Positions 3,641 through 18,786 of a DNA stretch of 20,000 nt are shown piece after piece. The number at the start of each line of letters is the position of its first letter. Positions within the stretch are counted from its first letter, which is position 1. The notes under the pieces were generated by a model. It saw nothing but the letters and a program-made list of their open reading frames with translations, was not told the origin of the DNA and searched no databases. Made by a program: the position numbers and the translations under genes. The stretch is from an uncultured virus (IMG/VR IMGVR_UViG_3300032167_000097) (taxonomy: Duplodnaviria; Heunggongvirae; Uroviricota; Caudoviricetes). The stretch lies in IMG/VR virus record IMGVR_UViG_3300032167_000097. One strand, given 5' to 3'.

Positions 3641-3883
3641 TCACAGCACCTTTACATCATAATTTTGGTATTTATTCTTTATAGGTAATTCACATAAATA
3701 TTTCCGAGTTTTAAAACAATCATCACAAATTGTAATAGTAGTAATATTAGACTTTTCATAATAAACAATATTATCTCTTTCAACTTTAAAATTAATACGA
3801 ATTTTTCTGGCTTTTTTATTTTTATTATGACAATATTTACAAACACAATTAGCATCCCTACTAATTAAATTAAAATTTCTCAT
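3641..3883 (-). CDS. small CxxC...CxxC zinc-finger protein
   Basis: Start moved to MRNFN with SD AGGGGGTG; CKYC...CDDC. Confidence 0.7.
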   Translation of the reverse strand: MRNFNLISRDANCVCKYCHNKNKKARKIRINFKVERDNIVYYEKSNITTITICDDCFKTRKYLCELPIKNKYQNYDVKVL

Positions 3884-10288: not shown

Positions 10289-10639
10289 CTTTTTCATTTC
10301 TTTTAATTTTTCATTTGCTTGTTCTTTTGTTAAAAAGATAGTTTTTCCAATATTTTTAATATCTTCTAATCTAAAAGATGTAGCACATACAATATAATAA
10401 ATTGAATCGTCATAATTAGCTCTCTGTGAAACAATTTTATATACAAAATCTCCCTCTTTACAAGGTAATTCTAGTAATAATCCATTTTCTGCCTTTTGTT
10501 CATAATATCCTAATTTTTGAACAATCTTATTTACTTTTTCAGTATCTAATGCAGGTTCTCCCCAATCAATATATTCTGTATCATAAATATCTGCAATAAA
10601 TATATTTTTTTCTTCATCAAATTCAGTTAATCTATTCAT
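10286..10639 (-). CDS. hypothetical phage protein (MxRLT...LPCKxGDxVY...IGKTIFLT family)
   Basis: Start moved to MNRLT (SD GGGAG); motifs typical of Firmicutes phage proteins. Confidence 0.8.
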   Translation of the reverse strand: MNRLTEFDEEKNIFIADIYDTEYIDWGEPALDTEKVNKIVQKLGYYEQKAENGLLLELPCKEGDFVYKIVSQRANYDDSIYYIVCATSFRLEDIKNIGKTIFLTKEQANEKLKEMKK

Positions 10640-10811
10640 TATTACATCTCCCAACAAATTCACTAACAATATTGCATAATTCATTATAACAATCCGTACA
10701 TAAATCTACATCATCACATCTATCAAAGTCGTCTATTTGTAATTCAGAATATCCGTTAATAGCATTAAATTCTGTACCACAATGGTCACAAATATATACA
10801 GTCTTTTTCAT
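10632..10811 (-). CDS. small CxxC...CxxC zinc-finger protein
   Basis: Start moved to MKKTV (SD AAGGAG); YICDHCG...DLCTDC. Confidence 0.75.
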   Translation of the reverse strand: MKKTVYICDHCGTEFNAINGYSELQIDDFDRCDDVDLCTDCYNELCNIVSEFVGRCNNE

Positions 10812-10825
10812 AATAAATTCTCCTT

Positions 10826-11149
10826 TTAAATACAACCACCACAACAACCATAAGGAACATTACTATTAAAAATAACATCAATTTCTGACGCATAGTTCCT
10901 ATATTGTTCTGGAATTGAATTTACTTCAATTTGCCATTCTCCCTTTTTAGTAGAATAATCTCTAGTAATACAACCACCACTATACCAAAATTTCTCATAA
11001 TCAATATCTTTCATATAAGACGGTCCAAATGTAACCTTTTTACCGTCAATTTCAAGAGTTAATACACCACTACATAAATTTGGATAACGACCATTATATG
11101 AAATAAATTTAATATGCTCATTTTCTAAATCATCATAATTTACTAACAT
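10826..11149 (-). CDS. hypothetical phage protein
   Basis: 107 aa; YPNLCSG, FWYSGG and C-terminal GCCGGCI motifs. Confidence 0.8.
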   Translation of the reverse strand: MLVNYDDLENEHIKFISYNGRYPNLCSGVLTLEIDGKKVTFGPSYMKDIDYEKFWYSGGCITRDYSTKKGEWQIEVNSIPEQYRNYASEIDVIFNSNVPYGCCGGCI

Positions 11150-11161
11150 AATATATCTCTC

Positions 11162-11332
11162 CTAATCAAATTCCTTACTAATAGGAAATTTATCTAATAA
11201 TTTAATTGATTCATATAAACCTGCGATTTTAATATCAGCATTTCTAGTGTCTAACATTTGTAAATTCGCAATATGTGTCATAATATATTTTTCAAATTCA
11301 CTTTTTAAAATATATCCGTCTTTCTTTTTCAT
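11162..11332 (-). CDS. hypothetical protein (56 aa; not in ORF track)
   Basis: MKKKDGYILKSEFEKYIMTHIANLQMLD...PISKEFD; start overlaps upstream stop (TAATG). Confidence 0.65.
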   Translation of the reverse strand: MKKKDGYILKSEFEKYIMTHIANLQMLDTRNADIKIAGLYESIKLLDKFPISKEFD

Positions 11333-11643
11333 TATCTTTTACCTTTCAATTTCATTTCATATTGCATATCTGCTAAAGCAAATTCTGCATCTTTAAGATT
11401 TGTAAATACAGTTTTTCTAAAACTTTCTTCTCTAAAAAACCATTCAGATGCAACTGTTTCTTGTGAATACCAAAATTCCTTTACAATAGTAGGTGTTGCC
11501 ACTCCATCTACTAAAATAGTTACCTTTTTAATATTTATAGAAGTGATTTTACATTTTTCAATAATACCCTCTGTTACATTTTTAATTACATATACAATAT
11601 CATCAATTAAGACAGGTACTTGAATTTCTTTCATTCTAGCCAT
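11332..11643 (-). CDS. hypothetical phage protein
   Basis: VPVLIDDIVYVI...FRKTVFTNLKDAEFAL, related to the C-terminal part of 10286-10639. Confidence 0.8.
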   Translation of the reverse strand: MARMKEIQVPVLIDDIVYVIKNVTEGIIEKCKITSINIKKVTILVDGVATPTIVKEFWYSQETVASEWFFREESFRKTVFTNLKDAEFALADMQYEMKLKGKR

Positions 11644-11653
11644 AAGTTACTCC

Positions 11654-11911
11654 TTACTCATAGTAAAATTTAACAGTTTCTTTAAATTCTTTATTTTTCT
11701 CATTAAAATATTCATATAATACTTTTAATGCTGATACAATTTTATCACATTCACTTATAGTTAATTCTTCTTCATATTGCATTAAAGTATTTTGCCAATA
11801 ATTAAATACCCTTAAATAAGGATTTTTAATATTATCATCATAAGGTGTAAAATCTTCTCCCCTTTTAATACTCTTTGCAATACATAATAATTGGTCAAAT
11901 TTTCGTAACAT
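11654..11911 (-). CDS. hypothetical protein
   Basis: Start moved to MLRKF with SD AAAGGAG. Confidence 0.75.
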   Translation of the reverse strand: MLRKFDQLLCIAKSIKRGEDFTPYDDNIKNPYLRVFNYWQNTLMQYEEELTISECDKIVSALKVLYEYFNEKNKEFKETVKFYYE

Positions 11912-11934
11912 AAAAATATCTCCTTTCATAAAAA

Positions 11935-12021
11935 GAACTTGGAGGGGATTTGAACCCCTCGTCTTTACTTAATCAAATAAATGATTAGAGGTAATGCACT
12001 AACCCGACTATGCTACAAGTT
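11935..12021 (-). tRNA. atypical tRNA-like RNA A (extended anticodon arm; identity undetermined, possible CUA)
   Basis: AACTTG/CAAGTT acceptor; D arm GCAT-AGTCGGGTTA-GTGC; T arm GAGGGG-TTCAAAT-CCCCTC; anticodon stem TTAC/GTAA encloses 22 nt; no encoded CCA. Confidence 0.65.
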
Positions 12022-12102
12022 ATCCCTTTTTTGTAGAGTAGTGACGAAATCTACCCATTCCCTTATGTTGTCATCATTAGGGATTATTCCTTGTGGGAAT
12101 AA

Positions 12103-12322
12103 AGATTGTAGATGGGATTTGAACCCATAAATGAAGTAGTTCCTCTAATAATTCGATAATCAAATACTTTACATTTTGCACATAATATATTTCTTCAATT
12201 ATTTCCTTATTGTTCTTTTAAGTGGTACATACTGTGCAATATGTATTACTCCAAATAAAAGTGAGTCATATTTCCTTCGCCCGTCCATACGGGTGTGTCT
12301 ACGCTTTTCCACCACTACAATC
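12103..12322 (-). ncRNA. tRNA-like RNA B with about 150-nt insert
   Basis: GATTGTAG/CTACAATC acceptor; Leu-like D arm GGTGGAAAAGCGTAGACAC; CCCGT-ATGG-ACGGG arm with 4-nt loop; T arm ATGGG-TTCAAAT-CCCAT. Confidence 0.7.
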
Positions 12323-12324
12323 AC

Positions 12325-12456
12325 TGGATTGGTACGGAATTGAACCGTCTTGCTCCCATAGCGTCTTACACTTATTAAGTGTATCGGTGGACTCGAACCA
12401 CATTTCAACATCTGCCTGCCAGCCTAGATGTAGTGCCCTCTTTACACACCAATCCA
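12325..12456 (-). ncRNA. tRNA-like RNA C with two T-loop arms
   Basis: TGGATTGGT/ACCAATCCA terminal helix; outer T arm ACGG-TTCAATT-CCGT; inner T arm GTGG-TTCGAGT-CCAC; ACATCT/AGATGT and TACACTT/AAGTGTA stems. Confidence 0.7.
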
Positions 12457-12589
12457 AATATTGTGCTATTAGCATATCTGACAATATCTAATAGCTGGTT
12501 CTGTATTTTACGCATTGCAGAACACCATTTGCGAGTTTTTGTAGTGGTTACATATGTCAGTATGACTACTACGAGTTTTCTTTCTCAAA

Positions 12590-12736
12590 ATGAGTAGGTA
12601 AGGATTTGAACCTTACAACAGACCAGGAGTTTCCCAATGTAACAACTTACTAATGACGGACTCGAACCGTAATACCTAGTCTTTTCGTTAGTTACTTTCA
12701 CTTTCTCCATACACCTTTTCGGAGATTTACTACTCA
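12590..12736 (-). ncRNA. tRNA-like RNA D with two T-loop arms
   Basis: TGAGTAG/CTACTCA acceptor; T arm GTAAGG-TTCAAAT-CCTTAC; TCTCC/GGAGA D-like arm; inner ACGG-TTCGAGT-CCGT. Confidence 0.7.
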
Positions 12737-12741
12737 ATTAT

Positions 12742-12770
12742 ATTTTATATAATAATACAATTTTATACAA
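12742..12770 (-). promoter_or_regulatory. possible promoter for the tRNA-like array
   Basis: TTGTAT-N17-TAAAAT places +1 at about 12735, the 5' end of RNA D; weak evidence in AT-rich DNA. Confidence 0.35.
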
Positions 12771-12792
12771 CTTTCTTCATATTTATTATCCC

Positions 12793-12978
12793 TTATACAT
12801 TCATAGTTCCGTCAAGATAATCATTTAATTCTTCATAATAATCTTGTAATGATTCTCCATCGTCTAACAAATCTTCGGTATCAAATAATAAATCTGCTAA
12901 ACATTGTTCTTCTTGTTGACAAATAACTCTTTCATATAAACAAGATTGACATTCAGTTCCATTACTTAAATTGCTCAT
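12793..12978 (-). CDS. hypothetical acidic protein
   Basis: 61 aa; CQSC; SD AAGGAG. Confidence 0.7.
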   Translation of the reverse strand: MSNLSNGTECQSCLYERVICQQEEQCLADLLFDTEDLLDDGESLQDYYEELNDYLDGTMNV

Positions 12979-12988
12979 AATATCTCCT

Positions 12989-13207
12989 TTAATTCATATC
13001 TCTACCCATTACAAAATAACCATTTCCCATACCACAATATTTATGATTTACAACAAGTACATCATTATATTGAGTTTCTAATTTATTAGCCATTTCCATA
13101 GCATCATTTATTTTTCTATAACAACCATTACTAGGTGCTAATATTTTAAAACCCTCTTTTTTTAATTGTTCTTGAATTTCCCATTCGTGTTCAACCCTTA
13201 TTTCCAT
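12989..13207 (-). CDS. hypothetical protein
   Basis: 72 aa co-oriented ORF. Confidence 0.7.
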   Translation of the reverse strand: MEIRVEHEWEIQEQLKKEGFKILAPSNGCYRKINDAMEMANKLETQYNDVLVVNHKYCGMGNGYFVMGRDMN

Positions 13208-13208
13208 A

Positions 13209-13391
13209 TTAATTTTTCTCCGATTTCATTTCTTCTAATATATAATCAGCATCTCTATCTAAATCCAACACTTCATTTGCAATTAAATTTGCAGTTTTCC
13301 TATCACAATGAGCAATCATCATAATATGATTTTCCATTACGGTCATAATATTATTATGTGATGCCTTAAATTCTTCTTTTGTTAATCTCAT
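13209..13391 (-). CDS. hypothetical protein
   Basis: 60 aa; SD AAGGAG. Confidence 0.7.
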   Translation of the reverse strand: MRLTKEEFKASHNNIMTVMENHIMMIAHCDRKTANLIANEVLDLDRDADYILEEMKSEKN

Positions 13392-13410
13392 AAATTTACT
13401 CCTTATATAT

Positions 13411-13587
13411 TTACTTTTCAGTTAATATAAGATATTCACAAACAACTCTTTCATTTAAATCGGTAATAGCGTCTGATAAATTATCAAAGGTTTCCATTTG
13501 TCCATTATTACAAATACCACCACCAGTTGAAATCATAATTTCTCCATTATCTAATTTAACTAATTCAATAAATACTCTTGTTTCCAT
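13411..13587 (-). CDS. hypothetical protein (58 aa; not in ORF track)
   Basis: METRVFIELVKLDNGEIMISTGGGIC...YLILTEK; SD AAGGAG. Confidence 0.7.
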   Translation of the reverse strand: METRVFIELVKLDNGEIMISTGGGICNNGQMETFDNLSDAITDLNERVVCEYLILTEK

Positions 13588-13601
13588 TATATTATTTCTC
13601 C

Positions 13602-13853
13602 TTAATTAGATAAAATTATATTTTTAAAACTATTTAATACAATATCTTTTGAAACATTTAATTCATTACTAATATTGTAAATTAAATTATTTAAGTATTT
13701 CTCACAAATATAAGTATCAATAGCATTTTGTGCTTGTGTAATATCAGCATAATGATTATAAGTAAATCCCTCTCCATAAACGAAATATCTTATATCAAAA
13801 CACACAATTTCTGGTTTAATTATATATTCCTTGTAGGTTATATAATCTTTCAT
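13602..13853 (-). CDS. hypothetical protein
   Basis: 83 aa; SD AAGGAG. Confidence 0.7.
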   Translation of the reverse strand: MKDYITYKEYIIKPEIVCFDIRYFVYGEGFTYNHYADITQAQNAIDTYICEKYLNNLIYNISNELNVSKDIVLNSFKNIILSN

Positions 13854-14041
13854 ATATTCTTCTCCTTTATATATTTAATAATAGAAATTAACCAACATAA
13901 ACATATAATTATACTATTAGTAATATGTAAACTTTGTGGACTAATTATAAATATAACTACTATTTCAAATACACATACAGAAAAAATAAATAATAATAAA
14001 TGTTCAGTTATAAAATTTATAAAATTATTTATTATTTTCAT
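13850..14041 (-). CDS. small membrane protein (2 TM)
   Basis: Start moved to MKIIN with SD AAGGAG; two hydrophobic helices and basic C-terminus. Confidence 0.7.
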   Translation of the reverse strand: MKIINNFINFITEHLLLFIFSVCVFEIVVIFIISPQSLHITNSIIICLCWLISIIKYIKEKNI

Positions 14042-14054
14042 ATAATACAACTCC

Positions 14055-14405
14055 TTAAAAACCCAATGCTTTCCTAATATCTTTTTGTGCCTTTTTATAA
14101 CCATCTTCCCAAGAATATTGCTTTTCTCTATCAAGAATTTTAAAGAACTCGTCAACAGATAAATGCTTTAACATAATAGATACTGCTTTTCTTTGAACAC
14201 TCTCATTATTTTGATTTTCTTCTTTTAAAAGCCATTCTTTAATTTCAGCACCCTCTTTAGAGTCTTTATAAATATAAATTCTAGTATCAGTAATATCACA
14301 ATTTAATATATAATACATAGAATTTTCAGACACATCAGCACCATACCACATACAATGGGAATTAAATTTTGACGGTTTTGTAGTTCCTATTACTAATTCT
14401 TTCAT
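14055..14405 (-). CDS. hypothetical protein
   Basis: 116 aa; SD AAGGAG. Confidence 0.8.
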   Translation of the reverse strand: MKELVIGTTKPSKFNSHCMWYGADVSENSMYYILNCDITDTRIYIYKDSKEGAEIKEWLLKEENQNNESVQRKAVSIMLKHLSVDEFFKILDREKQYSWEDGYKKAQKDIRKALGF

Positions 14406-14417
14406 AAAAATATCTCC

Positions 14418-14600
14418 TTAACTATATGGAACAAATTCCTTTGCAAGAGTTCTTAAACAGTCGTCACATAAAGAAAATGCAACAATATTAGCACCCTTAT
14501 AGGCACTTCCATTACGATTAATATTAATTTCTCTTGCAGATTTGTTTTTATCACAACAAGATATACAAATCTCGTGTTTCTTTGTCTTTACCTCTAACAT
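14418..14600 (-). CDS. small CxxC...CxxC zinc-finger protein
   Basis: CISC...LCDDC; SD AAGGAG. Confidence 0.75.
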   Translation of the reverse strand: MLEVKTKKHEICISCCDKNKSAREININRNGSAYKGANIVAFSLCDDCLRTLAKEFVPYS

Positions 14601-17311: not shown

Positions 17312-18286
17312 TTAATAATAATATCTATCTAAAACATTTTTTGAGGTAAAAGCCCAAGCAGTATTAGAATAATCAATATTTAAAGCGTCAATTTTATCAA
17401 TCAATTCAACAACACATTTCTTACCTAAATTACGAATACTTAATACTTTTGTAACTGTCATTTCTAAAACATCAGCAACAGTATCAATACTTGCTCTATG
17501 TAAAGCATTTACAGTTCTATTAGATAACCCAATTTGTTCAATATTAAGTGTTTTAAACTGATTTAAATAATTTATCTCATTTAACTTACCAAATGAAAAA
17601 TCATATAAATCAGGATATGTTGTTTCCATATAAGATTTTACATTATTCCAATCTTTCTTAATACGGTTTAACTCATTAATTTGATGAATTTCATTCTCAA
17701 GTGTTTCAAGTTCCTTTGATAAATTCTCCTTAATAGTATATAACTGCTTTAATTGTTCAATTTTATCAAAATAAAATAATTGCTTTAAAACTAATGGATT
17801 TCTTAACTTACGAAAGGCTCTCCATTCAATCTGTCTAATTCTCTCTCTTGTAACACCAAAATGTTTTGCTGTTTCTTCAAGAGTTTTAACACCATCTTCA
17901 CTAAATCTAATATTTAATACCTTTAATTCCCTTTCATTTAATGTAGACTTATATACTTCCCAAAATACATCTTCATCATATTCAGGAATAGCAACAATAT
18001 CAGTTAAATTAAATTCAAAAATACTCTTAATAATCTTATCTGATAAAGGCTCTGTTTCTAAATATAATTTCTTAAACTCGTCCTTATTTAAAGTGTGTAA
18101 ACTTTTTCTGATTTTATGATTAAAATTATCTCTAATAGAACGACTTAAATTTTGTGGTGTCATACCCAATTCAACTGCCATCTTATTCTGACTAATCTCG
18201 TCATTTAATACTTTATCAAACATTGTTGTTAAAACAACTAATTCATCTCTGACCTTTTTAATCTGTTCTGTATCTTTAACTGCCAT
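17312..18286 (-). CDS. HTH + sigma70 region 4 + RNA polymerase alpha-CTD fusion protein
   Basis: [19 protein letters not shown] (HTH); [41 protein letters not shown] (sigma4); [19 protein letters not shown]...[12 protein letters not shown] (alpha-CTD). Confidence 0.9.
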
Positions 18287-18745: not shown

Positions 18746-18786
18746 AAAAAATACTAAAATGTCAAGAAAAACATTCTAGTATTTTT
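18746..18786 (-). terminator. intrinsic terminator abutting the P5 -35 box
   Basis: TACTAGAATGT / ACATTTTAGTA stem (one G.U on minus strand) followed by TTTTTT. Confidence 0.75.

Follow-up and report, generated by a model that had tools for sequence, protein, structure and literature searches.

What is a cluster of three hairpins doing between two tRNA-like genes of a phage, and which strand, if either, carries it as RNA? In the 20,000-nt stretch of DNA that we analyzed (the window), the spacer between tRNA-like units C and D contains three unusually stable hairpins, here numbered H1 to H3 along the plus strand (Table 1). A sequence-only reading had pointed out these hairpins, the complementary loops CTGACA and TGTCAG and two copies of CGAGTTTT, all of which we found where it had placed them, and had proposed a separate structured RNA, possibly antisense, or a single-stranded DNA element.

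The surroundings of the cluster are oriented uniformly, as all credible open reading frames (54 scanned) and all strong promoters of the window lie on the minus strand. Pfam matches outlined a T4-type early region, with a gp30.3 homologue (E 4e-37), DUF188, an NT5C-type nucleotidase and an ASCH domain, and the stretch was present in 20 public runs from 15 studies, nearly all of them from ruminant faeces or gut. The source is a T4-like phage of ruminant guts. An unusual protein of 324 amino acids is encoded at 17312-18286 (minus), in which sigma-70 region 4 (E 2e-14) is fused to the C-terminal domain of the RNA polymerase alpha subunit (E 5e-14).

The G+C content, 26% in the window as a whole, rises to 34% over 11935-12736, where six T-arm-like motifs on the minus strand outline four tRNA-like units. 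Units A, B and C resemble tRNAs without being normal ones, and ARAGORN found no tRNA anywhere in the window, with or without introns. The anticodon loop of unit A (20 nt) carries 13 extra bases and opens with a would-be CUA anticodon context, unit B has ~140 AU-rich bases between its anticodon-type stem and its T-arm, and unit C gave a weak tRNA-Sec-like Rfam match (15.8 bits). Within unit C, the changes found in strain variants keep the pairing on the minus strand: a compensatory pair at 12415/12422 preserves an extra hairpin, the change at 12453 turns A-U into G.U on the minus strand but T-A into C.A on the plus strand, and the change at 12421 turns U.G into C-G on the minus strand. Hence, unit C is a minus-strand RNA. 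The spacer between units B and A (12018-12108) also folds into three hairpins, with no strand preference (-19.0 kcal/mol on minus, -20.5 on plus).

Table 1. Features of the tRNA-like array, the hairpin cluster and the promoters in the window.
Feature	Position	Strand	Description
Unit A	11935-12021	minus	Only Rfam match at gathering scores in the window (tRNA, 30.1 bits)
Unit B	about 12104-12323	minus	tRNA-like 5' part; anticodon-type stem with 4-nt loop
Unit C	12326-12455	minus	8-bp acceptor, 4-bp T-stem, extra arms, UUCGAGU loop
Linker between unit C and H1	12456..12464		Most variable stretch; 3/9 positions changed in variant strains
Hairpin 1 (H1)	12465..12495	strand-neutral	12 Watson-Crick pairs; C12473 bulged
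H1 loop	12478-12483		CTGACA on plus
Hairpin 2 (H2, middle)	12498..12523	plus	Arms GTTCTGTA/TGCAGAAC; 8 pairs including T12504.G12517
CGAGTTTT, first copy	12532..12539	plus	Just 5' of H3
Hairpin 3 (H3), core	12541-12572	plus	GTAGTGGT..CATA / TATG..ACTACTAC; G.U at 12546.12567
H3 loop	12555-12560		TGTCAG, reverse complement of the H1 loop
CGAGTTTT, second copy	12572-12579	plus	Overlaps the end of H3 and its tail
U-rich tail	12576..12585	plus	TTTTCTTTCT, directly 3' of H3
Unit D	12590-12736	minus	tRNA-like; predicted conserved gut-phage RNA family
Near-consensus promoters (predicted)	18744-18716, 14965-14937, 10219-10191, 7766-7738, 2266-2238	minus

The three hairpins differ in how they look from the two strands. 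On the plus strand the loop of H2 measures 10 nt, and on the minus strand only six pairs form around a 14-nt loop. H3 consists of 8+4 pairs with a 2-nt bulge, and its base can be extended by up to three pairs (UUU/GAG) to 12538..12575. In H2 and H3 alike, the non-Watson-Crick pairs are G.U on plus and A.C on minus. The flanking units carry their G.U pairs on minus, so that the opposite pairing pattern noticed in the sequence-only reading holds. The top of H1 resembles the reverse complement of the top of H3 (CATA-CTGACA-TAT), and CGAGTTTT occurs three times in the 20 kb (at 3705, 12532 and 12572). The 5' arm of H3 (TTGTAGTGGT on plus, 12539-12548) also repeats the opening bases of unit B (12311-12320) exactly, in inverted orientation, and the minimum free energy (MFE) structure of minus-strand 12090-12745 pairs these two segments in a 10-bp long-range helix that encloses unit C. 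We rejected this helix, since such a match is close to what chance would give and, in the strain of run X16, the neighbouring pair 12324-12531 is disrupted.

Folding energies set the plus strand of the spacer apart. Over 12456-12590, the RNA fold reached -36.2 kcal/mol on plus (z -3.94), a value equalled by 1 of 200 shuffled sequences and, in a separate run, by 3 of 2000, compared to -25.5 kcal/mol on minus (z -1.60), where 15 of 200 shuffles did as well. Taken one by one, H1 folded about equally on both strands (-9.1 kcal/mol on plus and -10.9 on minus, with z about -3.2 on each), whereas H2 fell from -9.3 (z -3.0) on plus to -4.8 (z -0.3) on minus, and H3, folded over 12536-12580, from -14.4 (z -3.9, with none of 200 shuffles as good) to -6.6 (z -1.55). 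The asymmetry therefore arises from H2 and H3, and the strand call depends on two internal G.U pairs and at most four marginal ones. H1, the sole hairpin with covariation, is strand-neutral, which counts against a plus-strand reading.

The bias also stands out against its background. For 442 windows of 135 nt across the 20 kb, the difference E(+)-E(-) averaged +5.97 (sd 4.93), with the minus strand usually folding better, and at -11.7 the spacer was the most plus-biased of all 442; units A, B, C and D, at +2.5, +0.1, +4.9 and +0.8, favoured the minus strand or were neutral. Refolding the spacer with DNA parameters gave -14.6 kcal/mol on plus (z -2.2) and -13.1 on minus (z -1.5). As the asymmetry is gone with these parameters, it points to RNA. 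Both the comparison to shuffles and the extreme position among the 442 windows show that the cluster exceeds chance. The earlier claims of better folding on the plus strand and of a distinct structured element, with a strand signal opposite to that of the flanking tRNA-like units, were borne out on these measures.

The match between the H1 and H3 loops is unusual but not overwhelming. Counting the loops plus one closing base, complementarity of at least 6 was reached in 8 of 2000 dinucleotide shuffles, or in 8 of 1150 when only shuffles with at least two hairpins were counted. With strict MFE loops, the observed complementarity was only 4, since the pair T12555.G12560 then closes the loop, and 4.5% of shuffles reached at least that value. 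These shuffle figures are tests per element, for an element that an earlier reader had picked out of a 20-kb scan. A 6-bp kissing interaction between H1 and H3 is a possibility that the loop sequences suggest.

Strain variation bears on both the coding status of the spacer and its pairing. Comparing the contigs of 4 of the 20 runs over 10500-14500, we found a variant strain carried by X15 (RNA) and by X16 (sheep gut DNA). Its listed changes in the spacer fall at 12458, 12459 and 12463 (the linker), at 12466 (C>T) and 12494 (G>A), and, in X16 only, at 12587 (a 1-nt deletion). The changes at 12466 and 12494 convert one and the same pair of H1 from C-G to T-A, a compensatory double change seen in two runs from two studies. 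Neither H2 nor H3, nor the loops of H1 and H3, has a change among the differences listed for X15 and X16 (17 of 20 and 19 of 21). Only one listed change falls within 12467-12586; neighbouring segments diverge by 2/160 to 13/151 (1.3 to 8.6%), and as the quiet segment lies within that range, we do not claim purifying selection. Variation in the region peaks in the 50 nt 5' of H1. The 1-nt deletions at 12439 (X15) and 12587 (X16) disrupt the reading frames 12222-12491(+), 12299-12484(-) and 12379-12597(+), and with them every frame that crosses the spacer, which is therefore non-coding; a protein-coding explanation was rejected on account of these frameshifts. At a larger scale, X10 contigs match the window exactly up to 12324 and again from 12828, leaving the segment between uncovered, and those of X16 have loose ends at 12760/12772. 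The block formed by unit C, the spacer and unit D may be exchanged between otherwise identical strains, missing cover alone not being evidence of this.

Two RNA runs contained the spacer. In X9, one contig of 432 nt matches 12144-12575 exactly and stops at the base of H3, and nothing else matched 10500-14500 at a likeness of at least 90%. In X15, a 514-nt contig covers 12165-12679 at a depth of 6.75, while the other pieces are lower (2.5-3.3); it reads through the putative terminator to 12679. The X9 contig bridges unit C and the spacer, and the X15 contig bridges the spacer and unit D. Such metatranscriptome contigs document presence in an RNA library and carry no strand, ends or level; the end of the X9 contig at 12575 fits a plus-strand 3' end in the U-tract and a minus-strand 5' end after removal of unit D about equally.

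A scan of both strands of the window for hairpins followed by T-runs returned four sites at -10 kcal/mol or better, of which H3 with TTTTCTTTCT was the strongest on either strand (-13.2 kcal/mol), on the strand that bears no genes. The plus strand has a second such site at 12262-12305 (-11.5 kcal/mol, tail TTTTCCACCA), where the GC-rich 5' hairpin that unit B forms is read in antisense. The other two sites are on the minus strand, at 18751 (-11.4) and 10257 (-10.8), each just 5' of a strong promoter. A stricter terminator scan did not flag the H3 site, probably because its stem model allows no bulge. The five best promoter matches, of the type TTTACA (or TTGACA)-17 nt-TG-TATGAT, all sit in minus-strand intergenic gaps, two of them directly after the sites at 18751 and 10257; judged from these motifs, they look like phage early promoters and operon boundaries. 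On the plus strand, promoter scans found only weak, AT-rich matches (9 of 12 positions). The scans gave no more matches than shuffled sequence did (12 vs 11.5 and 173 vs 164). Likewise, TATAAATA occurred 11 times where 10.8 were expected, never near the spacer. The CTGACA loops were considered as sigma-70 -35 elements and discarded, as inspection by eye found no -10 at the correct spacing.

Tentatively, and with the other readings together carrying more weight, we favour a plus-strand RNA module that would serve as the intrinsic terminator of an antisense RNA or as a stop for antisense transcription. We prefer it because the best hairpin-plus-T-run is H3 on plus and because H2 and H3 make sense only as plus-strand RNA. 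Within this proposal, we infer which strand gives rise to the RNA, that transcription does stop there, that the loops make contact, and any regulatory role. The three hairpins would form a module antisense to the operon of tRNA-like RNAs, in which H3 and its U-tract would act as an intrinsic (Rho-independent) terminator, and H1 and H2 would be the structured body just 5' in the plus-strand RNA that ends there. That antisense RNA may be a short sRNA, or it may extend over about 435 nt, the span 12144-12575 found in one RNA contig. Since it would be complementary over its entire length to the minus-strand precursor (D, C, B), it could guide or block the processing of that precursor; alternatively, the module may do no more than halt transcription in the antisense direction. 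Through the complementary loops, H1 could dock on H3, or these loops could make the first contacts with the sense RNA. An elaborate version, in which a cis-antisense RNA holds an intramolecular kissing complex that opens on the sense precursor and controls the maturation of a new class of oversized tRNA-like RNAs (B-D, with the D family absent from Rfam), seems to us distinctly improbable.

The main weakness of the plus-strand proposal is that no plus-strand promoter was found and that the stretch 5' of H1 is the most variable one. The suggestion of an antisense RNA, made on sequence inspection, is thereby upheld in part: the plus-biased fold and the presence in RNA libraries speak for it, and the promoter that it calls for did not turn up. 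As an architecture, the terminator-like hairpin cluster is ordinary, and what is unusual is its place and orientation inside an expressed tRNA-like array. If the plus-strand proposal is true, the spacer would be a rare documented instance of control or insulation by antisense RNA within a tRNA-type operon of a phage and would offer a handle on the role of the T4-type 'stable RNAs'; if the cluster belongs to the minus-strand RNA, it would be an ordinary structured spacer. Either way, the element flags an array of unusual, expressed tRNA-like RNAs in phages of the ruminant gut, and this array is the more interesting object.

Since genes, strong promoters and tRNA-like units are all on the minus strand, this strand is almost certainly transcribed across the spacer. 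In the main rival reading, the cluster would be a structured spacer of a polycistronic precursor (D - spacer - C - B - A) made from that strand, comparable to T4 RNAD: either a stable by-product or small RNA set free when the tRNA-like units are excised, or a processing or insulating element. The RNA contigs that join the spacer to unit C (X9) and to unit D (X15) agree with such a precursor, as do the covariation of H1 and its slightly better fold on minus, the hairpin-rich spacer between A and B, and the same layout in T4, where a 119-nt non-tRNA RNA lies inside the tRNA region. What it leaves unaccounted for is the poor minus-strand folding of H2 and H3 (z -0.3 and -1.55), with A.C mismatches that reverse the pattern of the flanks, and 14 homologues of unit D come without such a spacer, so that unit D does not need it. 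We consider this explanation somewhat unlikely. Another possibility is that the cluster is a relic or a small mobile hairpin insertion with no function of its own on either strand. H3, for instance, may have been inserted with CGAGTTTT as an 8-bp target duplication, or recombination may have brought in an inverted segment, in which case the strand signal would reflect its origin. Such an origin would fit the two copies of CGAGTTTT on both sides of H3, the likeness of the H1 and H3 tops in opposite orientation, the 10-nt inverted copy of the unit B 5' end within H3 and the mosaic character of the region between strains, as at the loose ends of X16 (12760/12772). We nevertheless find it improbable, as no other copies of the hairpin arms or loop contexts exist in the 20-kb window or in 62 fetched loci, the compensatory change in H1 argues for selection on pairing, and a 10-nt inverted match within 900 nt is, by our estimate, near chance.

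A quite improbable account is that the hairpins and their loop match arose by chance in an AT-rich non-coding spacer. The element was selected from a 20-kb scan for oddities, the strict MFE loop match of 4 nt is reached by 4.5% of shuffles, and the low divergence of 12467-12586 stays within the neighbouring range of 1.3 to 8.6%, all of which chance would accommodate; the 3 of 2000 shuffles that fold as well, the rank of 1 in 442 windows for strand bias and the compensatory pair in H1 oppose it. The single-stranded DNA element on the plus strand that the sequence-only reading had offered as an alternative, for example a priming or initiation signal, is not supported by the refolding with DNA parameters, as both strands then fold almost alike (-14.6 vs -13.1 kcal/mol) and the strand preference vanishes. 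Three hairpins in ~110 nt with CTG in their loops may resemble G4-type priming signals, which counts in favour of such an element, but for a large double-stranded T4-like phage no single-stranded stage is known in which one strand would be used at this place, and we regard this possibility as highly improbable.

Comparison to known systems yields partial likenesses. In the tRNA region of T4, two stable RNAs are found, RNAC (species 1, 139 nt) and RNAD (species 2, 119 nt), with RNAD between tRNA-Arg and RNAC; two papers, PMC3014915 (2010) and PMC9697503 (2022), still call their roles unknown. RNAD, a non-tRNA RNA, matches the spacer in its position among the tRNA or tRNA-like genes of a phage of the T4 type, and RNAC has a T-arm and acceptor stem with a large insert, as do units B to D. 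However, RNAD is encoded in the direction of the genes and its fold does not stand out from those of shuffled sequences (z -0.83), whereas the spacer folds well only on the opposite strand. The resemblance to intrinsic terminators and to the 3' modules of bacterial sRNAs lies in the stem-loop of H3 (about -13 to -14 kcal/mol) directly followed by a U-tract, with a U-rich single-stranded stretch and further hairpins 5' of it. The terminator-like site at H3 differs in its direction, which is opposite to that of all genes and strong promoters of the window. As to the loops, the antisense RNAs of ColE1 (RNA I/RNA II) and R1 (CopA/CopT) start pairing by loop-loop kissing. These systems have 6-nt hairpin loops as the spacer does, and a plus-strand RNA would likewise fully complement its sense precursor; the H1 loop CUGACA opens with a CUGA of the YUNR type. 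The spacer differs from them in that its complementary loops are in the same molecule, and its context is not one of replication or toxin control.

Searches for relatives of the spacer returned none beyond the strain variants in the phage, IMG/VR, metagenome and species-genome collections. No match was obtained by blastn with 11900-12800 and megablast with the whole window against 50,697 phage records (T4 included), nor by exact patterns from H1, H2 and unit C in IMG/VR and the metagenome collection. The flanking proteins and the sigma-like protein gave no match in IMG/VR, and against species genomes the sigma-like protein found three unrelated sigma-factor segments only. A BLAST comparison of 11600-13100 with the 62 fetched loci matched unit D only, and 12030-12600 against five IMG/VR records with unit D homologues gave a best E of 0.12. 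The Rfam and ribozyme check proposed along with the sequence-only reading came out negative: Rfam 15 over 12456-12590 gave no match on either strand at E up to 10, ribozymes and tRNA included, and on the results of Rfam and ARAGORN we set aside a ribozyme, riboswitch or tRNA on the plus strand.

Unit D, by contrast to the spacer, has relatives. A pattern of two T-arm motifs retrieved 28 IMG/VR loci, and a pattern built on unit D retrieved 21 metagenome and 5 IMG/VR loci. These 26 included 10 repeats and two chance matches (L037 and L040), leaving 14 distinct homologues (within L033-L058), 12 of which were aligned with the window after two near-duplicates (L042 and L047) were omitted. The consensus contains 36 pairs, 19 of them with compensatory changes, and Rfam searches of eight of the homologue loci gave no match at E up to 0.1. 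On this comparative evidence, unit D is a predicted conserved family of tRNA-like RNAs, ~145-165 nt long, on gut-metagenome phage contigs, its absence from the catalogue being judged by Rfam. Its features are a 7-bp acceptor, an invariant hairpin UCUCC-GAAAAGGNGUAU-GGAGA, a GGGAAACCC hairpin and a 6-bp T-arm; an inner stem encloses a hairpin whose 7-nt loop is serine-anticodon-like (UUCGAGU, UUCGAAA, UUUGAGA). In all homologues the next element is a gene or a terminator and never the spacer hairpins, so that the spacer stands apart from unit D and has so far been seen in this phage lineage only. Large phage tRNA arrays among the fetched loci (L008, L009, L011, L017, L026, L027, L031 and L032) include tRNA-like genes, 98-126 nt long, whose acceptor is TAGTCAGG/CCTGACTA. 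These genes have UUCGAGU where the anticodon loop (CGA, serine) would lie, with a very long segment preceding the T-arm, and the four that we scanned scored 36-46 bits on the Rfam tRNA model.
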